Source: an uncultured virus (IMG/VR IMGVR_UViG_3300042453_005981)
Taxonomy: Duplodnaviria; Heunggongvirae; Uroviricota; Caudoviricetes
Length of the DNA stretch: 64,000 nucleotides
Virus record (IMG/VR): IMGVR_UViG_3300042453_005981
Direction: 5' to 3' (one strand)
The position numbers were made by a program, and so were the translations under genes. This document shows positions 12,952-41,999 of the stretch, one piece after another. Each line of letters starts with the position of its first letter. Position 1 is the stretch's first letter. Under the pieces are notes generated by a model that searched no databases, had not been told where the DNA came from, and saw only the letters and a list, made by a program, of their open reading frames with translations.

Positions 12952-14229
12952 TTATTGTATCACCGCTTGATCTTGCACTGCAAGCATGTTAGTATTATAT
13001 GAAAGACTCAAAGATAACCCCTCTACTACATTTTCAGTCCACGTAGGAGGTTTTATTGCCATACTGAAAATATCTGAATTTCTCAAATAATTATTGTTAA
13101 CTAATCTGGTATAAATGGTTACGCCAAGAACAGTATCTGAAGCCGCTCCTACTTGTCTAGCCCACAAAGATGGTGTATTTGTTACTGAGCTAATGTTCAA
13201 CGTTAAAAAATTAAAAAATACAGACGAATATAAATAATTTGATGACGTTACTGTTGCAGGGTTAACATACCAAATGACGTTTGATGATAAAGTTGTTAAA
13301 TCATATCCCACTTCAAAGAATTGATGTATAAAAACATAATCTGGATATATTGGCTGTATATAAACAAAGCCATTAACAATTTTAGTGATCAAATATAGTC
13401 CTGATGTTTTCCCCCCTAAAGATCCTGCGCCATCTGTTAAGACGTTTACTGCTACTACTTGATTTAGCTCTAAACTAACACTCGAAAATAAACTTGCATT
13501 TAATTTATTTTCAGAAAGTTCACTACTTAGTGTGATGCCATAATCTGCAGAGGTTAGTTTTAAATTTGCAGTTTGAGACACCCAAAAATATCCACTTGTG
13601 TTATACAATCCGTAAAATGAATCCCCGTATTGGTCACTGACTTTAACTCTTGTAAAAATATATGATTGGTTTTGAGTTAACAATGAATTTACGCTTGCTG
13701 TGTCGCTTGAATCATCATATACTGTTAAATTTATACCAGTTATAGTTGTAACTCTGTATATTTTATTTTCTGAGTTAGTGGTTTGATTTTTTAGCAAAAT
13801 TAAATCATTTAAATTTAATGTGTTTGACAATACAGAAGTATAACTGGCAATTTGATAATAGTTACTGCCTATTGCAGTAAGTGTTACGTTCGTACTTTTA
13901 TCTGTAGCTGAAACCAAAGGAAAAAAACATACTGTTGGGCTATTATAATTTAAAAACCTATAATCAAAGCCTCTGTCAAACCCATTCAAAGAATAATATG
14001 TGGAATTTCTGATAGAAGAAACATTTTTGTCATCAAATGACATCGAAAGTTCTAATGCATTTTGATTAGTTATAGTGAACAGAAATTGTTTATTCTGAAG
14101 ATTCATGTATGTGTTATTATCGCCATTATCAGAAATAGATAATAGCGATAATTTCGGCTCAATGACCGCATTATTTGCCACTTGATATAATCTCACATCT
14201 TGTGGCAAAGGTATATCGTTGTAGTTCAT
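12952..14229 (-). CDS. putative virion structural protein
   Basis: NDLILLKNQTTNSENKIY, matching the D.VLVKNQT...ENGIY motif of phage fibre/neck proteins. Confidence 0.55.
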   Translation of the reverse strand: MNYNDIPLPQDVRLYQVANNAVIEPKLSLLSISDNGDNNTYMNLQNKQFLFTITNQNALELSMSFDDKNVSSIRNSTYYSLNGFDRGFDYRFLNYNSPTVCFFPLVSATDKSTNVTLTAIGSNYYQIASYTSVLSNTLNLNDLILLKNQTTNSENKIYRVTTITGINLTVYDDSSDTASVNSLLTQNQSYIFTRVKVSDQYGDSFYGLYNTSGYFWVSQTANLKLTSADYGITLSSELSENKLNASLFSSVSLELNQVVAVNVLTDGAGSLGGKTSGLYLITKIVNGFVYIQPIYPDYVFIHQFFEVGYDLTTLSSNVIWYVNPATVTSSNYLYSSVFFNFLTLNISSVTNTPSLWARQVGAASDTVLGVTIYTRLVNNNYLRNSDIFSMAIKPPTWTENVVEGLSLSLSYNTNMLAVQDQAVIQ

Positions 14230-15584
14230 TTTCTTAATTTAAAAATGCTTGAAGCTGCAGCTGACAAAATAGATCTTTCCACTTTGTTCATTGTAATTGC
14301 TGCGGCAACTTCATGAGTTTTACTACCATTGATTGCATGAGCTAATCCACAAGAATTTTTATCAAGATACGGATTTTCTATTTGTGACATATCTCCTAAT
14401 AATATAACTTTAGAATTTTTCCCACATCTTTCAACAACCATTCTTGCTTCTTTAGGGCTTACATTTTCTGCTTCATCTAAGATGATAAAACTATTTGGAA
14501 TAGATCTTCCTTGAATAAAAGCCATTGCCTCCACTTCTATGATTCCTTCTTCAACCATATCTTCAAAGCTATTTCCTCCAAATTTTCCATCATACCCTTT
14601 AAAAGCTGTTAACTGTACAATGTTGTCTTTGATTGGACCCAGCCAAGCACTTACTTTTTCTAATTTAGAACCTGGCAAAAATCCAATTTCTTTGCCACCT
14701 ACGGCAACCATTGGTTTCATAACAATTATTCTATCATATTGTCCAAGATTTACTTTTTCTAGCCCCACTGCAATAGCCATTAAAGTTTTTCCGCTACCTG
14801 CTGGTCCACTTAAGCACACAAGAGGTATATTATCATTTGCCAACGCCTCAAGAGCAAATCTTTGCTCCATGTTCTTTGCAGTAATTCCCATGTAAGATTC
14901 TTTTTTCTTTTTGTCATCCATGAACTTAATTTCTCTTTCGTAAAACCAAGCTAACACAGACTGATTTCCAAATCTAAAACAAATAAATTCATTAGGATTT
15001 AAATTTTCTAATTGATCTTGGCAGACTAAATTTGAAATTTTGCATTCTTCTCTTTTTGACAAATATTCCCAATCTGACAATTCATTTATAGAAACAATTC
15101 TATAACCCTCAAAAAAGTTTTTCTCTGATAACAAATCACTTTTGTAATTTTCAGCAACGCAACCCCAAGATATCGCCCTTACTCTTAATCCAGTGTCTTT
15201 GGAAACCACTACTACTTTTCTTTTTGGATTTGCGGCTTTTAATGAAATTGCCGAGTCAATAATTGCATTATCAGAGTTCACTCTAGTAATAGATGGTTTT
15301 TCATTTCTCATTAAAGGTGCTTCATTGTTATAAATAAAAAGTTTGCCACCTTTTTCATTTATCACCACTCCTTTAGTCATTTGTTGAATATCATATTGAT
15401 CTAAATTTCTAAAAACTTCTCTAGCCGCCCATCCTGCGGTTTCTTTTCTTGTTTTAATTTCATCTAAATCATCAATGCAAGCCAGAGGAATGTAAATATC
15501 ATTTTCTTCAAATTTGTAAATACAATCTGGATCGTGCAATAATACGCATGTGTCAATTACGAAGATGTGTTTGGGTTTTGCCAT
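14226..15584 (-). CDS. phoH: PIN-domain PhoH family protein (PhoH2/YlaK type)
   Basis: N-terminal VIDTCVLLHDP PIN domain, GPAGSGKT, IGFLPG, QGRS, DEAEN, GD.SQI. Confidence 0.93.
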   Translation of the reverse strand: MAKPKHIFVIDTCVLLHDPDCIYKFEENDIYIPLACIDDLDEIKTRKETAGWAAREVFRNLDQYDIQQMTKGVVINEKGGKLFIYNNEAPLMRNEKPSITRVNSDNAIIDSAISLKAANPKRKVVVVSKDTGLRVRAISWGCVAENYKSDLLSEKNFFEGYRIVSINELSDWEYLSKREECKISNLVCQDQLENLNPNEFICFRFGNQSVLAWFYEREIKFMDDKKKKESYMGITAKNMEQRFALEALANDNIPLVCLSGPAGSGKTLMAIAVGLEKVNLGQYDRIIVMKPMVAVGGKEIGFLPGSKLEKVSAWLGPIKDNIVQLTAFKGYDGKFGGNSFEDMVEEGIIEVEAMAFIQGRSIPNSFIILDEAENVSPKEARMVVERCGKNSKVILLGDMSQIENPYLDKNSCGLAHAINGSKTHEVAAAITMNKVERSILSAAASSIFKLRK

Positions 15585-23421: not shown

Positions 23422-23778
23422 GTGGCTAATTTATTTTATCGAAACACTAATGCTAAAATTTCTTTTGAAGTTCTTGATGCTAATAATAATTTAGTTGGCT
23501 TATCTACTTCAAGAGAGGTATATTGGTATATTTTAACACCTGACAATCAGATTGTGTCAAATGATACAGATATTACCAGTTCTACATTTGCTAATGGCAC
23601 ACCAGTTTACTCTGCCACACCAGTAGTTCAAGAAGAAGAACCAGGCATTTATTACATTAATTATGTGTTGGCAAAGGTAGGTGAGTATAAATATAAATTT
23701 CAGGTGATTGACAATCCTACATCAACAAATGTAGCTATTTCTGGAAATATAAAAGTAATAACTGACGGAATATTTTAA
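23422..23778 (+). CDS. Ig-like virion protein
   Basis: PGIYYINY...GEYKYKF; class B motif (AGG 23389). Confidence 0.55.
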   Translation: MANLFYRNTNAKISFEVLDANNNLVGLSTSREVYWYILTPDNQIVSNDTDITSSTFANGTPVYSATPVVQEEEPGIYYINYVLAKVGEYKYKFQVIDNPTSTNVAISGNIKVITDGIF

Positions 23779-26700
23779 TGGCAAATACTAATAAAAATAT
23801 ATTGATTACTCCTGGTATTGGTGGAATTTTATCTTCCTCAATATCACAAATCGATTTTATTTGGTATGAGTCTGGGATAGGCACAAATATTTTTGCTCCG
23901 AATATCAATGATCTACGTTCAACTATATACACTTGGGAACAAAATTCCGAGCCTGTGCTTTTGATTGGTGGTATAGGAACACTAAATAATCAACGAAAAT
24001 TTGTTGGACCATATCAAGATTTTGTTGGCAGTTTCACTGGTATATCAAGTTTTCCTAACATACAATTTTTTCCTTTGTCTGGAAAAATTGTAGGAAACAC
24101 AATTTCAGTGAGTGGTGTATCCACTTTAGCTGGTATATATTTATCAGGTCCTTTATATGATATAAACAACAGAAGTGGATCGTTTGGACAAATATTGTCA
24201 TCTACCGCATCAGGTGTAGCCTGGACAAGCATTAGCTATACTGGAATTATTACTGCTATAGGTGGCATCACAAATAGATTAGCGAAATTTTTAGACGAAG
24301 ATTCTTTAGGAAATAGTTCAATTATTGATAATGGTACACAAGTTATTTTTGGAGTGGGCGTATCAGTTTTAGGCTTCTCCACTTCTCTTGGGTTTTTTGG
24401 ACCAGGTACTAATCTTACTAATCTGAATGCATCTAATCTTTTCTTTGGCACAGTGCCTAGTTCAGTGGTATCAGGTTCTTATTCAGGCATAACATCTGTC
24501 GGAAATCTTTCCAACTTGTTTGTTACTGGTCTCAGTACATCTCTAGCTTATTTTGGTTTTGGTTCAAATCTTACTAATCTAAATGCATCTAATTTATTCT
24601 CTGGAACAGTGCCTAGTTCAGTGGTATCAGGATCTTATTCAGGTATTACATCTGTTGGTAATTTGTCTAGTTTGTTTGTTACTGGATTAACAACATCCTT
24701 CAGCTATTTTGGTTTTGGTTCAAACCTTACTAATCTAAATGCATCTAATTTATTCTCTGGAACAGTGCCAAGCTCAGTGGTATCAGGATCTTATTCAGGT
24801 ATTACATCTGTTGGTAATTTGTCTAGTTTGTTTGTGACTGGATTAACAACATCCTTCAGCTATTTTGGATTTGGTTCAAACCTTACTAATCTAAATGCAT
24901 CTAATCTGTTTTCTGGTACAGTGCCTTCCGCTCGTATTTCAGGTTCTTACTCAGGTATTACATCTGTTGGTAATTTGTCTAGTTTGTTTGTTACTGGATT
25001 AACAACATCCTTCAGCTATTTTGGTTTTGGTTCAAACCTAACTAATCTAAATGCATCCAATCTGCTCTCTGGAACAGTGCCTAGTTCAGTGGTATCAGGT
25101 TCTTATTCAGGCATTACATCTGTTGGTAATTTGTCTAGTTTGTTTGTTACTGGATTAACAACATCCTTCAGCTATTTTGGATTTGGTTCAAATCTTACTA
25201 ATCTGAATGCATCTAATCTGTTCTCTGGAACAGTGCCTAGTTCAGTGGTATCAGGTTCTTATTCAGGCATTACATCTGTTGGCAATCTATCTAACTTATT
25301 TGTGACTGGATTAACAACATCCTTCAGCTATTTTGGATTTGGATCAAACCTCACTAATCTGAATGCATCCAATCTATTCTCTGGTACGGTGCCTAGCTCA
25401 GTGGTATCAGGCTCTTACTCAGGCATAACATCTGTTGGAAATTTGTCTAGTTTGTTTGTGACTGGATTAACAACATCCTTCAGCTATTTTGGTTTTGGTT
25501 CAAACCTAACTAATCTCAATGCATCTAATTTATTCTCTGGAACAGTGCCTAGTTCAGTGGTATCAGGATCTTACTCAGGTATTACATCTGTTGGAAATTT
25601 GTCTAGTTTGTTTGTGACTGGATTAACAACACTTAATAATATAGAAATTGATGGTTGGTTAAGAGATTCAAATAACTCAATTGGTTTAAGTGGTCAAATT
25701 TTATCTTCTACCTCAAATGGAATTGCGTGGACTTCCATAAGTGCCACTGGTATTATTACTTCGATAGGAGGATTAACTAATCGTGTTTCAAAATTTGTAG
25801 ATGAAGATTCTTTAACTAATTCCAATATTACAGACAATGGCTCAGTGGTAGATGTCAATTCAGTTTTTTCAGTTAGTGGTATTTCTACTTTTGCTAAGGA
25901 CATAATTGTAAATTTTGTAAATATTGGACTTGGCGAAAATCAAAATATTTCAAACACTGTTTTTGGAAATCAAGCACTTGTAAATAACACAGGTATCTTT
26001 AACGTAGCGATAGGAGCATCTGTTTTAAATGCTAATACCACAGGTTTTTCAAATGTTGGTCTTGGCTTTAGCGCATTAGCTTTTAACTTATCTGGTTTTG
26101 CTAACATTGGTATTGGTGCGAGAGCTTTATCTGGAAATGTATCTGGAAACAACAATATTGCAATTGGGCAATTTTCTTTAAGGAGTAATTTAACTGGTGG
26201 ACAAAACGTAGCAGTAGGAAGGCTTACTTTATTCCAAAACATTTCTGGAAATAACAATTCTGCTTTTGGTGATTTAGCTTTAAGAAACTGGGACGTGTCA
26301 TCAAATCAAACTGGTATAGGATATCAGGCTTTACAAGGAAATTCTACTGTTACACTCAATACTGGCGTGTTCAATGTTGCTATTGGCAATATGGCTGGTA
26401 TGGCTGTCAGTTCTGGATCTTATAATACTTTTGTGGGTTCACAAAGTGGTGATCAAACAACTACAGGAAGTAACAATACTTTCTTGGGCGGTTTCACAAA
26501 TGGATTAATTTCTGGTGATTATCAAATTGCTATTGGTCAGTCTGTTGTTGTTTCTGGCTCCAATCAAGGAGCATGGGGAGGCACAACAAACGTTACTCGG
26601 ACAAATTTAGGAATTGGAACTTTTAATCCTCTTTCAAGACTTCATGTAGAAACTCTTGCTGCTGGCAACATGGGGCTTTATATTGCTGGATCTGCATCTC

Positions 26701-29700
26701 AAACCGCCGATTTAGTAGAAATAAATGCCACAACAAATGGTCAAAATTATTTTACAATTACTGGAATTGGCTCTGTTGGTATCTATACATCTTTGCCTTC
26801 ACAGCAATTTCAAGTGAATGGCAATGCAAGGGTTACAGGTGGAATCTTTGACTCAAATAACTTTATAGGTTCAGCTAATCAATTATTGTCATCAACAGGC
26901 TCTGGAATTGCGTGGACATCTACAGCAGGAGCAGGAATTGTAACTGGCGCTGGTGTAGCAACAAGAATTGCTTACTTTAGCGGTCCAAACACTTTAACAA
27001 GCAATTCTAATTTTATTATTGATTCCAACGGTAATTTTGGAATTAGCACATCAGCTCCAAGAAACAGACTTGAAGTAAGTAGTTCAGCAAGATTCAGCGC
27101 AAGTGTTATTTTTTACGGTTCAACCGCAAATGAAGCTTTTGCACTCACACAACTATTTGACACCACTTATTTTAACACTAACAACGTATTGAGATTCAGA
27201 CAAGGAGGGTCCACTGCTGGAGCGATAGCATTCTCTTTTTATGACTTTTTGCCTAACTTGTTTATGACGTTAGATGGTTCTAATGCACCAAGAGTTGGGA
27301 TAGGTACGACTGGACCTTTGCAAACGTTGCATGTTGGTGGAAATACATTAATATCAGGATTGACAACAGCGTTTAGCTATTTTGGATTTGGTTCAAATCT
27401 TACTAATCTGAATGCATCAAATCTATTCTCTGGTACAGTTCCTAGTTCAGTGGTATCAGGTTCTTACACAGGTATCACTTCTGTTGGCAATTTAACTAAT
27501 TTAAATGTAATAGGCATTTCAACGGTTACTAATTTTAGAGTATTAAATGGTTTATATGACTCAAATAATTTAGTTGGATTAGCAAATTCAGTTTTATCTT
27601 CAACAGGTTCTGGTGTGCTTTGGGTAGCCCCTGCGAGCGGAGGTCCAGGCGGTGGTACTATTAATGGCACGATAGAAGCAAATAGAATTGCTTTTGGGGC
27701 TGCGAGCAATACTATTACAGGCATTTCTACTTTTGTGTATAGTAACCAAGGCTTTATTGGCATAAACACTTCAAACCCAAACGCAAACTTAGATGTCCAA
27801 GGCACTTTCTTGGCAACAGGAATGTCCACTTTCTTAAATCTTAATGTTTTAGGTAGACTTTATGACAGAAGCGTTGGGAGTGGTAATACAGGTCAAATTT
27901 TAGTATCAACAAATTCTGGAGTAGCTTGGACAACAATTGATGCAATTTTTTATCAACTTGCAGATTCACAAATAGCATTTGGGCTAGGCAGTGATACCAT
28001 TTATGGTGTTTCCACTTTTGTTTATAGTGGGGGTAACTTGGGTATTGGCACTTCTGCGCCACTGCAGACACTTCATGTTGTCGGCAATGCGTTAATATCA
28101 GGTCTCACAACATCTTTAGCTTACTTTGGCTTTGGTTCAAACCTTACTAATCTAAATGCATCTAATCTGTTCTCTGGAACAGTGCCAAGTTCAGTGGTGT
28201 CAGGTTCTTATGCAGGTATTACATCTGTTGGCAATCTATCTAACTTATTTGTAACTGGTATTGCTACTCTCGTTAATGCTGAAATAGATGGCTGGCTTAA
28301 AGACAGAAGTGGATCTATTGGCACTCTTGGTCAAGTGTTATCATCCACTGGTTCAGGTGTTGCATGGTCATCTGTTTCATCTATTGGCATTATTACTGGT
28401 TCAGGAACCATAAATACTATTGCTAAATTTGGTGCATCTAGCTCTTTAATTAATTCAAATATCACTGATAATGGTATTGCTGTTACTGTAAACTCAAGAG
28501 TATTTGTCAACGGAATTGGGTCATTCTTGGGTGATATTTTTGTTAATCAAATGACTGTTGGTCTAGGAAGTCAACAATCTACTGGTAATGTAGCAATTGG
28601 TTTTCAGGCTTTTCAGACAGCTTCTCCTTCTGCTAGTGGCAATGTTGCTGTTGGCGACAGGGCTATGCAAACTACTTCTAATGCAATTTTTGGAAATGTA
28701 GCTATTGGACAATTAGCTCTTGCGGTTAACCAAGCGAACAGAAACATTGCTATTGGCGCACAGGCTTTAAGCTCAAATACTTCTGGCACTGGAAATATAG
28801 CTATTGGTCATCAAGCTTTATCTTTAAGTACTGTTGATTTAGGAAATATTGCAATCGGCGATAGGGCAATGAGGTTCCTTACTGGAGGAAGTGGAGGAAA
28901 TAACATTGCAATAGGTGGTGGTGCTAACTTAACTACAGCTGCTGAAACAACTTTTGTTGGAGCTACCGCTGGCAATAATTACACCACTCAAGGGCAACAC
29001 GTTGCAGTTGGGGCGTATGCTTTAGTTGGTGTGTCTACAACTGCTGCAACTGGAACTCAAAATACAGCTATCGGATATTCAGTAATGACTGGAATTACAG
29101 GTGGCAGTGCAAACGTTGGATTAGGGCACTTTGCGTTAAATGCTCTTACTTCAGGTAATAGCAACACTGGATTGGGATATTTTGCATTGGTTTCAAATAC
29201 CACAGGTAGCTTTAATGTGGCAGTGGGCAGAGAAGCGTTAAGATATTACACAACTATAAGCAATCAAACAGCTGTTGGTTATCAAGCTTTGCGTGGTAAT
29301 TCTGATACTACTTTGAATACTGGCACAAGCAATGTAGCTATTGGTTATCAGGCTGGTCTTGCTAATTCATCTGGATTTTTAAATACATACTTAGGACACC
29401 AAGCTGGTTTAGCCAATGCCAACGGAACTCACAATACTTTTATAGGCGCAACTGTTGGATCGGCTTCTACATCTAATCACAACACGATTATTGGGGCGGC
29501 TTCATATCAGGCTAACAACTTGGGCGAAGCAAACATTGTTGTTGGTAGCCTTTCTGCACAACTAAACACTTCTGGCAGCTACAACACAGTTGTAGGATAC
29601 AATGTGTTTAATAGTAACACTACTGGTGGTAACAATGCGGCGTTTGGCTTTAATGCATTAGCGTCTAATAATACTGGTGGTCAAAATATTGCGATTGGTA

Positions 29701-31688
29701 GATTTGCTTTAAGATACTATAATCAATCAAACCAGGTAGCAATAGGTGACCAGGCATTACAAGGTAGTAGCACTGTATCCCTCAACACAGGAACACAAAA
29801 TACTGCAATAGGATATCAAGCAGGTTTTGCAAATACTTCTGGCTCTAACAATGTTTTTGTGGGTTATCAGGCAGGCTTAGCAAATACTTCTGGCACAGAT
29901 AATACTTTTGTTGGAAGTACGTCAGGAAGAGTAAATGATTCTGGGAGCAACAATACGGCAGTGGGTTCAGGATCTTTACCAAGTAACACTTCAGGAACTC
30001 TAAACTCTGCTTTTGGTGCTACAGCCCTTAACAGTAACTCTACTGGTTCACAAAACTCTGCTTTTGGCTATGGAGCTTTAAATGCCACTATATCTGGTTC
30101 TAATAATTCCGCTTTTGGATTTAATGCTTTGCAAAATAATATTTTAACAAGCGGTAATACTGGCATGGGTAGAGATGCATTAAGATATTACGCTAACTCA
30201 GACAATCAAACTGCTGTAGGTTTTGGAGCTTTGCGAGGAAATGGTACTGTAGCCCTCAACACTGGAACCCAAAATACTGCTATGGGCTATCAGGCTGGTA
30301 TAGCAAATACCTCTGGCTCTAACAACGTATTTGTCGGTTATCAGGCAGGCTTAGCAAATACTTCTGGGAGCAACAATACAGCCGTCGGCAATCAATCTTT
30401 AGCAAATAACTCAGTTGGTATTCAAAATGTAGCTGTTGGAAGTTTTGCATTATTCTATAATTTAAATGGTAATTATAACATTGCTATAGGGCAAGATACT
30501 TTAAGAAATTATGAAACACAAGGTTTGCAAATAGCTATTGGGTATAGAGCTTTAAGAGGAAGTGACACAAGATCTTCTAACACAGGGTTTTCTAACGTTG
30601 CTGTAGGAAGAGAAACTTTAAGCATAAATACGTCTGGCTCTAACAACACTGCTCTTGGAACGTTAGCAGGTACTGTTAATAATAATGGTAATCAAAATAC
30701 TTTTGTTGGAGCACAAAGTGGGGACGGAAATACTTCAGGGTCTTCAAACACATATCTCGGTTATCTCACAGATGGAGCCCCTTCAGGCAACTATCAAATT
30801 GCAGTGGGTGATAGTGTAACGCTTACTGCATCCAATCTTGGTGCATGGGGTGGTAATACTAACTCCACTCGCACTGACCTTGGTATTGGTACTTTTACGC
30901 CACTAGCTCGTTTACATGTTGAAACATTAGCCGCTGGAAACATGGGCTTGTATATTGCAGGATCTGTATCACAAACTGGCGACTTAGTAGAGGTAAATGC
31001 CACGGCAAATGGTCAAAACTATTTCACGATTACTGGAATTGGCTCTGTTGGTATTTATACTTCATTACCTGCACAAGCCTTAGATGTAAGAGGCAATCAG
31101 ATTGTGTCTGGTATATCAACAGCGTTTAGTTTCTTCGGTTTTGGTTCAAACCTTACTAATTTAAATGCATCTAGTCTGTTCTCAGGAACAGTGCCAAGTT
31201 CAGTGGTATCAGGATCTTACTCAGGAATAACATCTGTTGGAACATTATCACAATTGAGTGTTTCAGGATTTTCTACTTTAAAGAATTTTGAATCTAGTGG
31301 TCAATTTAATTTTTATGGAACTTCAAACCTTGATAACCAAAGAGTGTTTACTGGAGCATCTTCTTCAATTAATCAAACTACATTTGTAGGCATGACTTCT
31401 ATTGCAGTTCCTGTTGGTTATCAATTAACAATTGAAGGTAAAATCAATGGATGGTTCAATGAAAGTTTCAATGAAAGCGGTAGATTCTTCGCTGTATTTA
31501 ATAACTCAATTGGAATTGTTTCTATAATTGGTCAGCCAGACATTACATCTAAATTTGTTGGATCAAGTGGTAATTTTGACATACAAGCCCAAGGACCCAA
31601 TGTTGTTATTGTTACTAAATCTAACGCATCTTCCAATATGTGGCTATGGAAAACATCTTATGATTACTTACTTACACAAAATGTATAA
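23778..31688 (+). CDS. giant tail fibre / adhesin-like virion protein, 2636 aa
   Basis: GQILSSTGSGVAW and VGIGT..P...LHV fibre repeats, YadA-head-like N.A.G..AL repeats, 52-aa tandem repeats. Confidence 0.85.
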   Translation: MANTNKNILITPGIGGILSSSISQIDFIWYESGIGTNIFAPNINDLRSTIYTWEQNSEPVLLIGGIGTLNNQRKFVGPYQDFVGSFTGISSFPNIQFFPLSGKIVGNTISVSGVSTLAGIYLSGPLYDINNRSGSFGQILSSTASGVAWTSISYTGIITAIGGITNRLAKFLDEDSLGNSSIIDNGTQVIFGVGVSVLGFSTSLGFFGPGTNLTNLNASNLFFGTVPSSVVSGSYSGITSVGNLSNLFVTGLSTSLAYFGFGSNLTNLNASNLFSGTVPSSVVSGSYSGITSVGNLSSLFVTGLTTSFSYFGFGSNLTNLNASNLFSGTVPSSVVSGSYSGITSVGNLSSLFVTGLTTSFSYFGFGSNLTNLNASNLFSGTVPSARISGSYSGITSVGNLSSLFVTGLTTSFSYFGFGSNLTNLNASNLLSGTVPSSVVSGSYSGITSVGNLSSLFVTGLTTSFSYFGFGSNLTNLNASNLFSGTVPSSVVSGSYSGITSVGNLSNLFVTGLTTSFSYFGFGSNLTNLNASNLFSGTVPSSVVSGSYSGITSVGNLSSLFVTGLTTSFSYFGFGSNLTNLNASNLFSGTVPSSVVSGSYSGITSVGNLSSLFVTGLTTLNNIEIDGWLRDSNNSIGLSGQILSSTSNGIAWTSISATGIITSIGGLTNRVSKFVDEDSLTNSNITDNGSVVDVNSVFSVSGISTFAKDIIVNFVNIGLGENQNISNTVFGNQALVNNTGIFNVAIGASVLNANTTGFSNVGLGFSALAFNLSGFANIGIGARALSGNVSGNNNIAIGQFSLRSNLTGGQNVAVGRLTLFQNISGNNNSAFGDLALRNWDVSSNQTGIGYQALQGNSTVTLNTGVFNVAIGNMAGMAVSSGSYNTFVGSQSGDQTTTGSNNTFLGGFTNGLISGDYQIAIGQSVVVSGSNQGAWGGTTNVTRTNLGIGTFNPLSRLHVETLAAGNMGLYIAGSASQTADLVEINATTNGQNYFTITGIGSVGIYTSLPSQQFQVNGNARVTGGIFDSNNFIGSANQLLSSTGSGIAWTSTAGAGIVTGAGVATRIAYFSGPNTLTSNSNFIIDSNGNFGISTSAPRNRLEVSSSARFSASVIFYGSTANEAFALTQLFDTTYFNTNNVLRFRQGGSTAGAIAFSFYDFLPNLFMTLDGSNAPRVGIGTTGPLQTLHVGGNTLISGLTTAFSYFGFGSNLTNLNASNLFSGTVPSSVVSGSYTGITSVGNLTNLNVIGISTVTNFRVLNGLYDSNNLVGLANSVLSSTGSGVLWVAPASGGPGGGTINGTIEANRIAFGAASNTITGISTFVYSNQGFIGINTSNPNANLDVQGTFLATGMSTFLNLNVLGRLYDRSVGSGNTGQILVSTNSGVAWTTIDAIFYQLADSQIAFGLGSDTIYGVSTFVYSGGNLGIGTSAPLQTLHVVGNALISGLTTSLAYFGFGSNLTNLNASNLFSGTVPSSVVSGSYAGITSVGNLSNLFVTGIATLVNAEIDGWLKDRSGSIGTLGQVLSSTGSGVAWSSVSSIGIITGSGTINTIAKFGASSSLINSNITDNGIAVTVNSRVFVNGIGSFLGDIFVNQMTVGLGSQQSTGNVAIGFQAFQTASPSASGNVAVGDRAMQTTSNAIFGNVAIGQLALAVNQANRNIAIGAQALSSNTSGTGNIAIGHQALSLSTVDLGNIAIGDRAMRFLTGGSGGNNIAIGGGANLTTAAETTFVGATAGNNYTTQGQHVAVGAYALVGVSTTAATGTQNTAIGYSVMTGITGGSANVGLGHFALNALTSGNSNTGLGYFALVSNTTGSFNVAVGREALRYYTTISNQTAVGYQALRGNSDTTLNTGTSNVAIGYQAGLANSSGFLNTYLGHQAGLANANGTHNTFIGATVGSASTSNHNTIIGAASYQANNLGEANIVVGSLSAQLNTSGSYNTVVGYNVFNSNTTGGNNAAFGFNALASNNTGGQNIAIGRFALRYYNQSNQVAIGDQALQGSSTVSLNTGTQNTAIGYQAGFANTSGSNNVFVGYQAGLANTSGTDNTFVGSTSGRVNDSGSNNTAVGSGSLPSNTSGTLNSAFGATALNSNSTGSQNSAFGYGALNATISGSNNSAFGFNALQNNILTSGNTGMGRDALRYYANSDNQTAVGFGALRGNGTVALNTGTQNTAMGYQAGIANTSGSNNVFVGYQAGLANTSGSNNTAVGNQSLANNSVGIQNVAVGSFALFYNLNGNYNIAIGQDTLRNYETQGLQIAIGYRALRGSDTRSSNTGFSNVAVGRETLSINTSGSNNTALGTLAGTVNNNGNQNTFVGAQSGDGNTSGSSNTYLGYLTDGAPSGNYQIAVGDSVTLTASNLGAWGGNTNSTRTDLGIGTFTPLARLHVETLAAGNMGLYIAGSVSQTGDLVEVNATANGQNYFTITGIGSVGIYTSLPAQALDVRGNQIVSGISTAFSFFGFGSNLTNLNASSLFSGTVPSSVVSGSYSGITSVGTLSQLSVSGFSTLKNFESSGQFNFYGTSNLDNQRVFTGASSSINQTTFVGMTSIAVPVGYQLTIEGKINGWFNESFNESGRFFAVFNNSIGIVSIIGQPDITSKFVGSSGNFDIQAQGPNVVIVTKSNASSNMWLWKTSYDYLLTQNV
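24405..25631 (+). repeat. 156-bp (52-aa) coding tandem repeat, about 8 copies
   Basis: GSNLTNLNASNLFSGTVPSSVVSGSYSGITSVGNLSSLFVTGLTTSFSYFGF; aatgc anchors at 24426 and 24582; single copies also near 27360-27505, 28100-28260, 31110-31245. Confidence 0.95.
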
Positions 31689-33826: not shown

Positions 33827-36800
33827 ATGAGAATTTATAACGATTCAATAGAAAATGCAGTGGGGATAAGCTCATCTCAGTATGGGCTTTATGTTGGGTC
33901 TGGATATACATTTTTTACACCTCCTGTAAATGGTTTAATTATTCAAGGCTCTGTAGGAATTGCAACTTCAAGTCCAACACAAGCACTACACGTTTCTGGG
34001 TCTGCAAGAATTACAGGTGCAATTTATGATTCAAATAACGCCACAGGTTCTTTGAATCAAGTTTTAACATCTACTGGAGTTGGTATAACTTGGGCTACTG
34101 TAAGTTCAACAGGTGGGGTGTCTGGCTCTGGAACAACAAACACTGTTGCTAAATTTAATTCTTCAAGCTCTTTATCTAACTCAAACATCACAGATAATGG
34201 AATTGCAGTAACAGTAAATTCTCGCATTTTTGTTAATGGTTTTGGTTCTTTTTTAGGTGATTTGTTCGTTAATCTCATAACTGTTGGGAGAGGTGGTGGA
34301 TCAAATACGCTTAATACTGTTGTAGGTTTTCAAGCTGGTCTTGCAAATACGTCTGGTTCTAATAATACTTTTATTGGATATCAAGCTGGATTAGCTAATA
34401 CTTCAGGATCAAACAACACTGCTCTTGGAGCTTCAGCCTTATTCAGTAATAACACAGGTGCGTCTAATGTTGCTATAGGCTACAATGCTTTATATGCTAC
34501 AACGTATGGTGCAAGAAATGTAACTGTAGGTTTTGAAGCTGGATATCAAATTGTTAGTGCAAATGACAACACTTATATGGGTTACAGAGTTGGATATGCC
34601 AATACAAATGGTTCAGGAAATTCTGCATTTGGAATTAACGCCTTAAATTCAGCTACCACTCCTTTCTTCAACACAGCTATAGGTAGGCAGTCACTTTATT
34701 CTACTACAACTGGGGGCGACAATACAGCTGTTGGGAATAATGCTGGTTTTACTAATACAACTGGAACATATAATGTCTACATTGGGGCTGGAGCTGGACA
34801 ATATCAAACACAATCTTTTCTCACAGCAATTGGTGGAGTGGCGCTTAGAGGAAATGTTGACACAACTTTAAATACTGGGACTTTAAATGTTGCTGTTGGG
34901 TACGCTGCTGGAACTGCAAATACTTCAGGTAGTAGCAACACTTTTATTGGTCACACTGCAGGGGCAAACAACAGTACAGGAAATACAAATACTTTTGTAG
35001 GAAACTATGCTGGTTCAGCTAACACATCGGGTTCAAATAATAATTTTTTTGGTGCGAATACTGGAGCTAACAATTCCACAGGCACTGGAAACGTTGCTAT
35101 GGGAATTTCTGCTTTCAATCAAAACAGGCATGGGATAAATAATGTTGCTATTGGCAGACAAGCTTTCTATTATAATGTTTCAGGAAGTAGTAATGTTGCA
35201 GTGGGCAACAACGCTTTATTTTACTATGAATCTTCTTCAAGCAATACGGCTGTTGGAGACGCTGCGCTCTTAGGTAATTCTACCACTTCTTTAAACACTG
35301 CCTCAGGCAACGTGGCTTTGGGTGCTTCTGCAGGCATAGCTAATTCTTCTGGATCATTTAACGTATATATTGGCAATTCTGCTGGAAGCACAGTAACTAC
35401 AGGCAATAATAATGTTTTTGTTGGTAATCAGTCAAATGGAATTGCGGCTGGCAGTAACCAAATAGCTATTGGTCAAGGCGTAATTATTACAGCATCTAAC
35501 CAAGGAGCATGGGGTGGAAGCACTAATTCTACTCGAACTAACCTTGGTATAGGTACTTTTTCACCTTTAGCGAGATTACACATTGAGACTTTAGCTGCAG
35601 CAAATATGGGTTTGTATATTGCTGGTTCTGCATCTCAGACTGGAGACTTGGTAGAAGTAAATGCCACTGCAAATGGTGCAAATTATTTCACAATAACAGG
35701 AATTGGCTCTGTGGGCATTTACACTGCTACCCCGACACAACAATTACATGTTTCTGGTAATGTCAGAATAAATGGTGGAATCTTTGATTCTAACAACAAC
35801 ATAGGTTTAGCAAACTCTGTTTTAAGCTCTACAGGCACAGGTTTAGCTTGGATTGCTCAGTCTGCTGCAGCTGCAGGCAGTGGAACAATTGGCGGCTCAA
35901 TATCTACGAACCAAATTGCTTTTGGCAACACTTTAAATGTAATCACTGGTATTTCAACTTTTGTTTATTCAAATAATCGTGTTGGTATTGGCACTGCTGT
36001 TCCTTTGTCTATTCTTCACACACGATCTGGTTTTGCTAATTCTTCAGCATTGAGGGTAGATGGTATTTCTGGCAATCTTTTTGAAGTCACAGATATTCTA
36101 ACAGGTAACTTGCAGTCTGTAAACAATATTTCTGGTTTACCTGTTTTTCAAGTTTTTGATGGTGTAAATAACCCATTGGTTGCAGTAAAAACTCCAGTGG
36201 GTCTCGCTTCTGAAGCATTCTCTGTTACATCACCTCTTAATTTTCCTTATTTCAGTGTGAGCGGTTTAGGAAGCGTGGGTATTGGAACTTCCACCCCTTC
36301 AAGAACTATGCATGTTCAAGGAAATATGCGTGTTACAGGCGTGTTTGCCGATACATTCAATGCTGCTGGTGCATCTAACAATTTATTACAATCTACAGGA
36401 TCTGGAACTGCTTGGTCTTCCTTTGTTCAACTAGGTTTAGTTACAGGTGCAAGTGCTGGTTCTAGAATTGCTTTTTATGCTACTCCAAACTCTTTGATTG
36501 GTGTATCTACCTTCGTTTACACAGGTATAGGCTCTGTTGGAATAGGAACAGCTAACCCCACGCAACTATTACATGTCACTGGTATTGGTAGATTTGACCA
36601 AATTACATTGGGACCAACAGCCACTCCTGTTTCTGGATATCCACTTTCTCTATTTGGTAATTTTTATTTAAGAGCAAATGATGTTATTTCATGGTCAGCT
36701 GGAAATGCAAGTATTGTATCAGCAAGTGGTGTTTTTGATTTAAGATTCAGAACATATAACGGCTCTACTGCTGAGTTTGAGCATATGAGAATTTTGTCTA

Positions 36801-37531
36801 ATGGAAATGTTGGCATCGGAACTACTGGACCTTTAGCAAAACTACATGTTCAAAGCTCTAATGTCGCTAATATACCATTAATTCTTTCAGGTTTTGGAAT
36901 ACAAACTGCTGATTATTTGAGAATTGAATCGCAAGTCAATGGAACAAGATTAATTACAATTGATTCAACAGGAGAATTAGGTATTGGAACATCCACTCCT
37001 ACTCAAACTCTGCATGTGCAAGCAGGATCTAGGTTTAATGGAGCAATTTTTGACACTAATAATCTTTCTGGTGGTCCGATTGGTATTGTAAGCCAAGTAT
37101 TGCAATCAACTGGAACAGGTGTGACGTGGGCTCCAGTAAAAAGATCATTAATCATACCATTGATGACAGCATTTACACCCACTGCTTCTGGAATTGATGC
37201 AGGTGTATTTATTGTACCACAAGATCCTATTAATGGTATTTCATCTGTAAACTATAACTTACGAAGGGTTAATGTGCGAGTTGAAACTCCAGCAACAGGA
37301 ATCACTACAATAAATGTATCTAAATCCACAAGTCCTGGCGTGTTCTCTGGTGCGAATATTTTATCTTCAGATATTCTTGTTACAGGTGCTTCTAATTATG
37401 AATTCGCATCTAGCTCCTTTACTGGATTTGGAGCAACAGCAACAAGTAACGATAAATTTGCAGTGAACTTTATAGGGACAGCACCAACATTTGCTAACTT
37501 TACAGTGGAATTAATATTGAGAGAAGCATGA
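33827..37531 (+). CDS. tail fibre / adhesin-like protein, 1234 aa
   Basis: VGIGT..P..LHV repeats, NTSGSNNT..G beta-roll repeats, modules shared with 23778-31688. Confidence 0.85.
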   Translation: MRIYNDSIENAVGISSSQYGLYVGSGYTFFTPPVNGLIIQGSVGIATSSPTQALHVSGSARITGAIYDSNNATGSLNQVLTSTGVGITWATVSSTGGVSGSGTTNTVAKFNSSSSLSNSNITDNGIAVTVNSRIFVNGFGSFLGDLFVNLITVGRGGGSNTLNTVVGFQAGLANTSGSNNTFIGYQAGLANTSGSNNTALGASALFSNNTGASNVAIGYNALYATTYGARNVTVGFEAGYQIVSANDNTYMGYRVGYANTNGSGNSAFGINALNSATTPFFNTAIGRQSLYSTTTGGDNTAVGNNAGFTNTTGTYNVYIGAGAGQYQTQSFLTAIGGVALRGNVDTTLNTGTLNVAVGYAAGTANTSGSSNTFIGHTAGANNSTGNTNTFVGNYAGSANTSGSNNNFFGANTGANNSTGTGNVAMGISAFNQNRHGINNVAIGRQAFYYNVSGSSNVAVGNNALFYYESSSSNTAVGDAALLGNSTTSLNTASGNVALGASAGIANSSGSFNVYIGNSAGSTVTTGNNNVFVGNQSNGIAAGSNQIAIGQGVIITASNQGAWGGSTNSTRTNLGIGTFSPLARLHIETLAAANMGLYIAGSASQTGDLVEVNATANGANYFTITGIGSVGIYTATPTQQLHVSGNVRINGGIFDSNNNIGLANSVLSSTGTGLAWIAQSAAAAGSGTIGGSISTNQIAFGNTLNVITGISTFVYSNNRVGIGTAVPLSILHTRSGFANSSALRVDGISGNLFEVTDILTGNLQSVNNISGLPVFQVFDGVNNPLVAVKTPVGLASEAFSVTSPLNFPYFSVSGLGSVGIGTSTPSRTMHVQGNMRVTGVFADTFNAAGASNNLLQSTGSGTAWSSFVQLGLVTGASAGSRIAFYATPNSLIGVSTFVYTGIGSVGIGTANPTQLLHVTGIGRFDQITLGPTATPVSGYPLSLFGNFYLRANDVISWSAGNASIVSASGVFDLRFRTYNGSTAEFEHMRILSNGNVGIGTTGPLAKLHVQSSNVANIPLILSGFGIQTADYLRIESQVNGTRLITIDSTGELGIGTSTPTQTLHVQAGSRFNGAIFDTNNLSGGPIGIVSQVLQSTGTGVTWAPVKRSLIIPLMTAFTPTASGIDAGVFIVPQDPINGISSVNYNLRRVNVRVETPATGITTINVSKSTSPGVFSGANILSSDILVTGASNYEFASSSFTGFGATATSNDKFAVNFIGTAPTFANFTVELILREA

Positions 37532-38022
37532 AATTAGAAAAACAAAAAAGAAATGATTTTGATATTTGGTTGAATGAAAATGGTGCAATTTATTCAATTA
37601 TTCCAGTACCTAAAAATCTATGTTATCATTTTTGCTTACCTGAAACATTTTATCAAACAATCTTACAATTGGGATCATGTGGAAACTCACTGAGATATTT
37701 AATTAAACAAAAATACCCCGACACAATTTTAACAGATGTGGATGTAGAAGATTACTCAGAATATTCCGATAATTTTATCCAAGACGATGCATATTCATTT
37801 ATAAAAACCACTGTAATTGAATATGATTATTCAATTGTTGATTTAGCTACCACAGATGATGTTTGTGATTTTATTACTGAATTAGATTTTCAATTAAATT
37901 TGAAAAGAATCAGCAAGCAAGGAGTGATAAATTGTGGGAGTAATTACAAAGATTTTTCTTTATTAAAATGTACAAAAAAAATAAAAGCAGAGGGTAATCA
38001 CCTTTACTTTTGGGAGAGATAA
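37528..38022 (+). CDS. degenerate spermidine-synthase-like / class I methyltransferase-fold protein
   Basis: ILQLGSCG..L..LI...YP....DVDV...IQDDAYSFI...YDYSIVDL. Confidence 0.45.
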   Translation: MKLEKQKRNDFDIWLNENGAIYSIIPVPKNLCYHFCLPETFYQTILQLGSCGNSLRYLIKQKYPDTILTDVDVEDYSEYSDNFIQDDAYSFIKTTVIEYDYSIVDLATTDDVCDFITELDFQLNLKRISKQGVINCGSNYKDFSLLKCTKKIKAEGNHLYFWER

Positions 38023-38976
38023 ATGGCAACAGCAGGACCTAATTATTCTGGAGCGGTGGCAAATGATGCTTCTATTGGCACAGTTGCATGGGTCAACCCT
38101 ACAAATGCTCAAGGTAATCAAACAACAGTTTATGCTTATGTTGACCTTCTAAATGCGGGTGTTGTAGAGCTATCGATTAAATTAATTAAAGGTGGTGTTA
38201 TATCTGGAACAGACAAATCTACTGGCGCAACAATACCTACAACTCTCACCACGGTAAATTACGGAAGTGCTTCTGATTTATGGGGTCTGACATTCACTCC
38301 CACCGATATTAATTCATCAAATTTTGGCGTGGTATTTGCCTCACAGGAACCCTTAGCACCAACAGAATCAAATTATCTTTCTGCAACTAATTTTGGATTT
38401 TCTATTCCTGCTGGTTCGACAATAAATGGAATATCATGTTCTATAACGCAGTTAGCGGCAAATGCAGCTTCTTTTGCTGAAGGCACACAAATTCAAACAC
38501 AATCTGGAATTAAAAACATAGAAGAAATAACAAAAGATGATTTAGTTTTAAGTTTTAATAAAAATACAAAAAAATGCTCTTACAAAAAAGTAAAAGACGT
38601 AGTTTGCACAACAGTGCATGAATATTTAATCATCAACGAAAAAATAATCACAACTTTTAATCACTTATTTTTTACTACAAGAGGCTGGGTTCAGGCGGCA
38701 GAACTAAAAAAAGATGATTACTTATGGAAACGAAAAAACAATAAGTGGTGCAAAGAAAAAATTAAGAAAATACAAACTGAAAAGCAAACTATTAATGTTT
38801 ATAATTTTGAAGTAGAAGAAAACAACACTTACTTTGCTAATGATTTTGCTGTGCATAATGTGATTCTTGTGAACAGATATGTAAGAGTGTATAATTTTGG
38901 AATATCTGTAGACTATACAGCCTCAGGCGGAGGAGGAGTACAAAGAAGAAGAGTGATAGCTACTTCCCTTGATTAG
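38023..38976 (+). CDS. virion structural protein with inserted Hint (intein-like) domain
   Basis: W.NP.NA, YG.ASDLWG, NFGFSIP.G.TINGI host motifs around a K-rich Hint insert. Confidence 0.8.
   Translation: MATAGPNYSGAVANDASIGTVAWVNPTNAQGNQTTVYAYVDLLNAGVVELSIKLIKGGVISGTDKSTGATIPTTLTTVNYGSASDLWGLTFTPTDINSSNFGVVFASQEPLAPTESNYLSATNFGFSIPAGSTINGISCSITQLAANAASFAEGTQIQTQSGIKNIEEITKDDLVLSFNKNTKKCSYKKVKDVVCTTVHEYLIINEKIITTFNHLFFTTRGWVQAAELKKDDYLWKRKNNKWCKEKIKKIQTEKQTINVYNFEVEENNTYFANDFAVHNVILVNRYVRVYNFGISVDYTASGGGGVQRRRVIATSLD
38470..38859 (+). other. Hint domain (130 aa, no endonuclease, BIL-like; +1 residue is Val)
   Basis: block A SFAEGT, block B TFNH.F, GWV.A.EL, block F VYNFEV, block G FAN.FAVHN followed by V. 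Confidence 0.9.
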
Positions 38977-39178
38977 AATTTTTAATTTTATTCTTAGATT
39001 GTGTTTTAATGTTTTTACCCATGTCTTCATTTGGAATTGTATCAACTACTTCAATCCCTTCTATTTTGTCTAAAAAAGCCATAAGCTCTAAACATTCAGA
39101 ACCAGATGTTCCCTTTGGTGTAACGAGAATTTTACCCTTTTCATCAATCTCAATAACTAATTCCACTTTCTTGCTCAT
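38960..39178 (-). CDS. DUF2997-family protein
   Basis: IEIDEKGKI....G.SG.EC. Confidence 0.7.
   Translation of the reverse strand: MSKKVELVIEIDEKGKILVTPKGTSGSECLELMAFLDKIEGIEVVDTIPNEDMGKNIKTQSKNKIKNSNQGK

Positions 39179-40376: not shown

Positions 40377-41999
<1,623 letters not shown>

Follow-up and report, generated by a model that had tools for sequence, protein, structure and literature searches.

A Hint domain of the bacterial intein-like kind in a predicted beta-sandwich protein of phages, and its probable self-removal

Introduction

What becomes of a protein that is interrupted by an intein-like domain when the residue needed to complete splicing is missing? The question is raised by a gene at positions 38023 to 38976 of a 64,000-nucleotide stretch of viral DNA (the window), which is part of a 347,392-bp record of an uncultured virus of the Caudoviricetes (IMG/VR IMGVR_UViG_3300042453_005981). 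The gene encodes 317 amino acids, of which residues 150 to 279 are a Hint domain and the flanking residues, here called the N-extein and C-extein, are the two parts of a phage "host" domain. Bacterial intein-like (BIL) domains were recognised about two decades ago; they are described from variable regions of bacterial surface and toxin proteins, and their natural roles are poorly understood. No description of a BIL or PT-HINT domain inside a phage tail or virion beta-sandwich was found in full-text literature searches, in which the original BIL papers were represented through reviews only. The window Hint is best explained as an intein-like optional element with BIL chemistry, which would cut itself out in two uncoupled cleavages; the host would be left as two chains locked together by a strand, perhaps with a minor ligated fraction. 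We regard this explanation, argued below, as probable.

The Hint domain

Two Pfam families match the insert: PF07591 (PT-HINT; E 2.2e-15), whose 57.6 bits exceed the family's cut-off of 27.7, and PF14890 (Intein_splicing), which scores a lower 37.7 bits on the same Hint. The top match in a search of PDB sequences was a BIL domain of Clostridium thermocellum (2lwy; E 8e-13), aligned over the whole domain, the best true intein being five orders of magnitude weaker. An AlphaFold2 model of the 317-residue protein, built from 44 sequences, has a mean pLDDT of 92.7, and its residues 146-279 superpose on 2lwy with Z 21.1 and a root-mean-square deviation (rmsd) of 1.4 Å over 130 residues, at 32% identity. 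Structural runners-up are Tetrahymena BUBL BIL2 (Z 19.8) and mini-inteins (Z 18.7-19.8); the 30 chains that match the Hint fold at Z>=8 are nearly all BIL, intein or Hedgehog Hint domains, and two solved BIL domains rank first when the model is searched with Foldseek. By these matches the insert belongs with the Hint domains of A-type BIL / PT-HINT type.

Much of this had been anticipated in an initial annotation made from the DNA alone, which described a 130-residue, lysine-rich insert with Ser1, TxxH, VYNFEV and a terminal His-Asn, and assigned it to the A-type BIL group. The limits given for the insert are exact, 19 of its 130 residues are Lys (14.6%), every one of the motifs can be read in the DNA (Table 1), and the best matches by both sequence and structure are solved BIL domains. 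That annotation was also right in reading the +1 residue as Val, by which canonical splicing is precluded because the +1 nucleophile is missing, and in finding no homing endonuclease: none lies within the 130 residues, for which the Pfam scan returned Hint families alone.

The A-type BIL of C. thermocellum shares with the window Hint an N-terminal Cys or Ser, TxxH, a C-terminal His-Asn, and the lack of both a +1 nucleophile and an endonuclease, but it has Cys1 where the window Hint has Ser1. Location separates the two further. Passages of the BIL literature place these domains in hypervariable regions of non-conserved bacterial proteins (PMC7765530) or right before toxin domains (PMC3482391), whereas the hairpin turn occupied by the window Hint is a fixed one, in a compact and conserved domain of phages, and no toxin domain is present. 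B-type BILs, which have no His-Asn block G, are not matched; in the window Hint His-Asn is present and conserved. BIL2 of Tetrahymena thermophila BUBL1 (6TMM/6Y75), which gives the top Foldseek matches (E 6e-10), also processes without canonical splicing; unlike the window Hint it is eukaryotic, follows ubiquitin-like repeats and is flanked by a complete domain, the window flanks being two halves of one sheet.

Class 1 mini-inteins (gp41-1, NpuDnaB and NrdJ-1) resemble the window Hint in fold, in their catalytic blocks, in their insertion within a folded host domain and in their sporadic occurrence among alleles; the intein feature of insertion into a conserved host domain that also has Hint-free alleles is found in the window Hint. 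They differ in needing Cys, Ser or Thr at +1, where the window has Val, and their hosts are typically replication or repair enzymes, whereas the window host is a virion-associated beta-sandwich. For other BILs, a single change at this position is reported to yield a canonical intein. In Hedgehog and Hog proteins a sterol-recognition or adaptor region follows the Hint; the window protein has in its place 38 residues that align to the last strand of the host, and Hedgehog chain 1at0 matches the model (Z 18.4) over the Hint fold alone. Peptidase_S74, a chaperone of tailspikes and fibres, cleaves itself at the C-terminal, distal end of tail-fibre-type proteins during maturation. It is a functional analogue only, unrelated to Hint in fold and chemistry, and it has no match among the Pfam hits at E<=1 for the 317-residue open reading frame (ORF).

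The host domain and the insertion site

The host belongs to a large phage family of proteins or modules of about 185 amino acids, with relatives confirmed at least 225 times in viral contigs and at least 280 times in metagenome contigs, and with ESM Atlas clusters that are 92-97% viral. The family often adjoins tail-fibre genes, and its middle module is also present within an annotated tail tubular protein A. Conserved segments A, B, CDE and F usually follow one another in the order A-B-CDE-F; in the subfamily of the window the order is A-CDE-B-F, with the motifs W.NP.NA (A), KGG...YG..DLWG...FGV (CDE) and YL.ATNFGF...ING (B) all in the N-extein. Long proteins carry as many as 13 copies of the CDE module, which is about 70 residues long.

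Annotation of the host domain is sparse. Pfam matched 0 of 73 members and NCBIfam had no match; the best E against PDB sequences was 0.6, and no PHROG family covers the host part of the window ORF or the Hint-free homologues of loci L009 and L023. The ESM Atlas returned only unnamed viral clusters, apart from one weak lead to MAM at 0.76. The model of the Hint-free homologue P0020 (pLDDT 92.1) is a weak match to CBM32 modules, with a best Z of 5.8 and rmsd of 3.1-3.2 Å over 98 residues and no chain at Z>=8; Foldseek with the same model found nothing in the PDB at E<=0.001, and a BFVD search returned unnamed phage proteins only. The host is a widespread phage domain, a beta-sandwich in the models, with a weak resemblance to the galactose-binding-domain-like / CBM32 fold.

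The site at which the Hint enters this domain can be placed with some precision. In the P0020 model, strands at residues 132-144 and 149-162 are joined by a 4-residue turn; in the window model the equivalent strands, 133-146 and 286-299, are split by the Hint. The equivalent loop varies between 5 and 25 residues among 17 Hint-free homologues. From the strands of P0020 and these loop lengths it follows that the Hint occupies the turn at the end of a long beta-hairpin, where length varies naturally. The initial annotation had put the Hint between two beta strands of a host domain rich in Gly, Ser and Thr, with a C-terminal piece of 38 residues remaining, and had proposed that Hint-free homologues would define the insertion site. 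Such homologues were found and do so; the strands are those of the model, the three residues make up 33.6% of the N-extein, and the C-terminal piece is residues 280-317.

Conservation of catalytic and junction residues

A word-indexed search with the 317-residue protein returned 254 homologues at E<=1e-3. A profile of 19 Hint-bearing members, run against 1.84 billion representatives, returned 1018 proteins at E<=1e-30. The top 150 of these were taken. A sub-profile of the Hint with its flanks, run over 262 proteins, marked out 229 complete Hint domains in 134 proteins. The Hint lies directly before the last strand of the host family in 68 proteins. With the exclusion of proteins whose downstream match is not that strand (P0129, P0161, P0189, P0213, P0223, P0235 and P0259) and of nine near-duplicates of the window protein (P0001-P0008 and P0010), the sample consisted of 59 clusters at ≤50% identity with the Hint at the window's site. 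Unless stated otherwise, the counts that follow refer to these clusters.

Residue 1 is Cys in 33 clusters and Ser in 26, that is, one or the other in all 59. The Thr and the His of block B are each present in 55, the penultimate His in 58 and the terminal Asn in all. Position +1 presents a different picture: Ser, Thr or Cys occurs there in just 4 of 59 clusters against a background of 21.8% for the three residues in these proteins (binomial P 0.0018), and 48 of 59 have a hydrophobic residue (A 11, V 9, F 7, I 7, L 6, P 5). At positions +2 to +8 the count of Ser, Thr and Cys is 11-24. The -1 residue is variable (A 10, T 9, G 7, P 6, and others). Hint length is 125-140 residues in all 68 proteins, and for that reason none of these Hints holds an endonuclease.

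As a whole the Hint is divergent, with a mean pairwise identity of about 41% among the 19 aligned Hint-bearing proteins. Compared with the window protein, close relatives are 45-62% identical in the Hint and 69-82% in the exteins, so the Hint diverges faster. In the four pairs with the least saturation, dN/dS ranges over 0.06-0.3 for the Hint and 0.05-0.13 for the exteins; the Hint is, judged by these ratios, under purifying selection. The C-extein has at most 66 residues in 51 of 59 clusters, where the Hint-bearing module is the last domain, and in 21 of 59 the module is found inside longer, fibre-like proteins.

Distribution of Hint-bearing and Hint-free forms

Hint-free proteins with the segment order of the window are common. 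A tree of the N-extein alone, with 78 rows of which 47 have a Hint and 31 do not (P0001, P0011 and P0093 were left out), shows the two forms interleaved: 14 changes are needed, at least two of them forced by well-supported branches, and one clade with 98% support holds five Hint-free and three Hint-bearing rows. P0155, with a Hint, and P0035, without one, are 58% identical up to the junction.

The family also has a second Hint site, directly after segment A. It is occupied in eight proteins, among which both segment orders are represented; three of the eight have Ser at +1 and the other five Lys. Hints are found at the A junction and at the F junction in both orders. A Hint phylogeny of 228 domains (FastTree) was too weakly resolved to trace moves between the two sites or an origin from tandem arrays. 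One 193-residue relative, P0011, is 79% identical to the window protein and ends about 44 residues into the Hint, without the last strand; either a broken allele or the end of an assembly could account for this.

The initial annotation had proposed a domesticated autoprocessing switch, or else activation of the N-fragment for ligation to another molecule. Both readings are conjectural. Hint-free homologues are common and interleaved with the Hint-bearing ones, a pattern that fits an optional element better than an obligatory device.

Proposed processing of the protein

From the residues and the fold described above we infer the following chemical steps and products. After translation, Ser1 with the TxxH block would bring about an N-O acyl shift at A149|S150, and cyclisation of the H278-N279 pair would cut N279|V280. 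As no branched intermediate can form without a +1 nucleophile, the Hint would leave through two uncoupled cleavages. The resulting N-fragment of 15 kDa and C-fragment of 4 kDa should remain together, because the C-fragment contributes a 14-residue strand to the same sheet, and in the model the position of the Hint at a hairpin tip between two 14-residue strands makes such a two-chain product plausible. Part of the protein might be re-joined, the freed amine of V280 attacking the ester (aminolysis). Masses calculated from the sequence are 34.6 kDa for the precursor, 15.1 kDa for the N-fragment, 15.4 kDa for the Hint, which would end in a succinimide, 4.2 kDa for the C-fragment and 19.2 kDa for the ligated exteins. 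The catalytic residues would be retained since the host domain needs the Hint removed.

The initial annotation had set canonical splicing, which needs Cys, Ser or Thr at +1, beside the mainly self-cleaving A-type BILs. It overlooked that A-type BILs, in the passages of PMC4031507 devoted to them, also ligate their flanks, if weakly, by aminolysis. By analogy, cutting out and splicing would not be mutually exclusive for this Hint.

Several points weigh against the explanation favoured here. The cleavage and ligation products are deduced from sequence. The oxyester of Ser1 would be less reactive than the thioester of the BILs studied, and the N-terminal step may be slow or incomplete. The 59 clusters are an ascertained sample, since the profile whose top 150 matches supplied them itself included the Hint; dS is saturated in most pairs, four pairs being used; and the extein tree is poorly resolved, with 47 of 74 inner branches below 80% support. 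The Hint is kept in nine of nine related loci of the window's lineage, which would fit a useful, domesticated function as well. Finally, the depletion of Ser, Thr and Cys at +1 would not be predicted for a purely selfish element to which splicing is harmless. A structural requirement for a hydrophobic side chain might lie behind this depletion, or else selection that disfavours splicing.

Alternative explanations

The alternative that survives best is that true splicing is the main selected outcome: A149 would be ligated to V280 by aminolysis after Asn cyclisation, restoring a single-chain host of 187 residues, a scheme proposed for the A-type BIL of C. thermocellum. Conservation extends to the chemistry of both junctions, each of which is required if the Hint is to be removed completely; the hairpin is continuous at the Hint site in Hint-free homologues. 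Ligation by type A BILs without a +1 nucleophile is reported in the relevant part of PMC4031507, which sets out a route in which an N-terminal thioester forms, the Asn cyclises and the amine so freed attacks the thioester. The same part of that paper, and a passage of PMC7664689, describe cleavage products as dominant, the latter for BILs without a +1 nucleophile. In 26 of the 59 clusters, including that of the window, residue 1 is Ser, and an oxyester is, as a matter of general chemistry, a poor acyl donor to an amine; moreover, many +1 residues are beta-branched or are Pro (V 9, I 7, P 5 of 59), which would make hindered nucleophiles. On balance we consider splicing as the main outcome unlikely, if still a serious contender.

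A second alternative holds that the Hint is a domesticated device, which either passes the ester of the N-fragment to an outside nucleophile (a virion protein, glycan or lipid) in the manner of Hedgehog, or serves through cleavage as a timed assembly switch. Consistent with this are the nine of nine syntenic relatives that retain the Hint, the depletion of Ser, Thr and Cys at +1, and the use of two fixed Hint sites in one host family, the first following segment A and the second preceding the last strand. The terminal position of the module in 51 of 59 clusters, its place within longer fibre-like proteins in 21 and the weak resemblance of the host fold to carbohydrate-binding modules also point this way. 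Hint-free homologues of the same architecture are, however, frequent and interleaved on the tree, and hence the host can do its work with no Hint in it. Conservation is lacking at the -1 residue; there is no acceptor or adaptor region, since what follows the Hint is the host's own last strand; and both ester transfer and a switch function are argued by analogy. Taken together, these points leave the device an improbable explanation.

A more specific form of domestication would make the Hint an arming device for a carbohydrate-binding-like domain at a fibre tip. A reactive ester or thioester created at the end of the N-fragment, beside the hairpin tip, would be joined to a host surface glycan or amine or to a neighbouring virion subunit, or else the terminal strand would be freed for exchange between subunits. 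If this were true, the recurrence of Hints at two terminal-strand junctions and the avoidance of a +1 nucleophile would be adaptive; we think it a long shot.

That the Hint is an inert structural insert, never removed and merely decorating the hairpin tip, is compatible with the Hint fold in general, whose N and C ends lie side by side, and with the model, in which the host folds around the insert at high confidence. Five catalytic positions are almost fully conserved across the clusters although identity elsewhere in the Hint falls to about 30-40%, which is not expected of a passive insert and makes this reading very improbable. A canonical class 1 mini-intein with an artefactual Val at +1, intein-like though Ser1, TxxH, His-Asn and insertion at a conserved site are, is ruled out, and with it the sequencing error hiding Cys, Ser or Thr that the initial annotation had itself raised, by an independent metagenome contig (L087) identical in DNA across the HN|V junction, by the presence of the Hint in nine of nine syntenic relatives, by Val or Ala at +1 in the ten closest homologues, and by the rarity of Ser, Thr and Cys there in the wider sample.

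Relation to inteins and BILs

In at least 59 clusters of phage proteins, as far as residues and sites can tell, a BIL-type Hint behaves topologically like an intein, with a fixed site in a folded, conserved domain and Hint-free alleles, yet keeps BIL chemistry. It may be a link between inteins and BILs. Should cleavage at the hairpin tip be tolerated without ligation, this would explain how a Hint persists in a host protein that offers no +1 nucleophile. The processing might represent an unrecognised maturation step of phage tail-associated proteins. A 35-kDa protein with natural Hint-free controls is also a small test case for distinguishing cleavage, aminolytic splicing and cargo transfer.

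Genomic neighbourhood

The Hint gene closes a plus-strand gene block that opens with fibre-like proteins of 2636 and 1234 amino acids (Table 1). Both are rich in Gly, Ser, Thr and Asn and match PHROG tail-spike and virion-structural families many times over. The two large proteins are shared with relatives in part only, which suggests, at the level of sequence, that the fibres are mosaic.

Table 1. Features of the Hint gene and of its surroundings (window coordinates)
Feature	Position	Strand	Basis or remark
Whole gene, 317-residue Hint-interrupted beta-sandwich protein	38023-38976, stop codon included	+	ORF list, homologues, AlphaFold2 model
N-extein, residues 1-149	38023-38469	+	Segment order A, CDE, B from Hint-free family profile coordinates
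Strand B, residues 133-146, first hairpin arm, interrupted by Hint	38419-38460	+	DSSP on model
Mini Hint / A-type BIL-like domain, residues 150-279, 130 residues	38470-38859	+	Pfam; sequence and structure matches to 2lwy
Ser1 codon tct (S150), putative nucleophile of N-O acyl shift	38470-38472	+	DNA
Block B TxxH, T211-F-N-H214, act ttt aat cac	38653-38664	+	DNA
Blocks F/G, VYNFEV...FAVHN; V259 at 38797, cat aat (H278-N279) at 38854-38859	38797-38859	+	DNA
+1 codon gtg (Val280), non-nucleophilic	38860-38862	+	DNA; same in contig L087
C-extein, residues 280-317: short linker, strand F, Gly run, basic tail	38860-38973	+	38 residues, 4.2 kDa
Strand F, residues 286-299, second hairpin arm, conserved last strand of Hint-free homologues (VD.I.I.V.YT type)	38878-38919	+	DSSP, alignments
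164-residue ORF abutting Hint gene upstream, conserved syntenic neighbour	37528-38022	+	54-70% identical in 7 loci
1234-residue fibre-like virion protein, immediately upstream	33827-37531	+	PHROG virion structural, tail spike and tail fibre families
2636-residue fibre-like virion protein, opens block	23778-31688	+	PHROG tail spike (2e-80) and virion structural families
GroEL-type chaperonin	40380-41999	+	phrog_5725, E 3e-143
Convergent 72-residue ORF, overlapping last 17 bases of Hint gene	38960-39178	-	
PhoH-like gene	14226-15584	-	phrog_2765, E 4e-92

All nine related loci (L087-L094 and L097) keep the Hint gene and, within the reach of each contig, the four small genes on the minus strand that come after it. 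Upstream, the fibre gene and the 164-residue ORF are present in the seven loci that extend that way; the ORF is adjacent in L088-L093 and L097 (partial in L090), and L087 and L094 begin inside the Hint gene. Seven loci extend downstream as far as the GroEL-type chaperonin, with 71-99% identity, and in each of them four small genes separate it from the Hint gene. No terminator-like hairpin was found between the Hint gene and the convergent 72-residue ORF.

Other Hint arrangements

The searches also brought up Hints in other settings. At one locus (L095, 4027-10400) a Hint-bearing module 40% identical to the window protein is part of an open frame of at least 2124 residues that runs off the locus. 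P0121, P0138 and about 30 others are bacterial-type proteins with 3-5 PT-HINT domains in direct tandem, in which each Hint ends with His-Asn and is followed by Lys-Gly-Gly and then Cys1 of the next; in P0121 and P0138, the two proteins scanned, a Tim44-like domain comes after the array. P0223, of 810 residues, has three Hints, each directly followed by a ubiquitin unit (Pfam ubiquitin E 1e-100, in 4 stretches), an arrangement that we take to resemble the BUBL polyubiquitin-like genes of Dassa et al. 2004.

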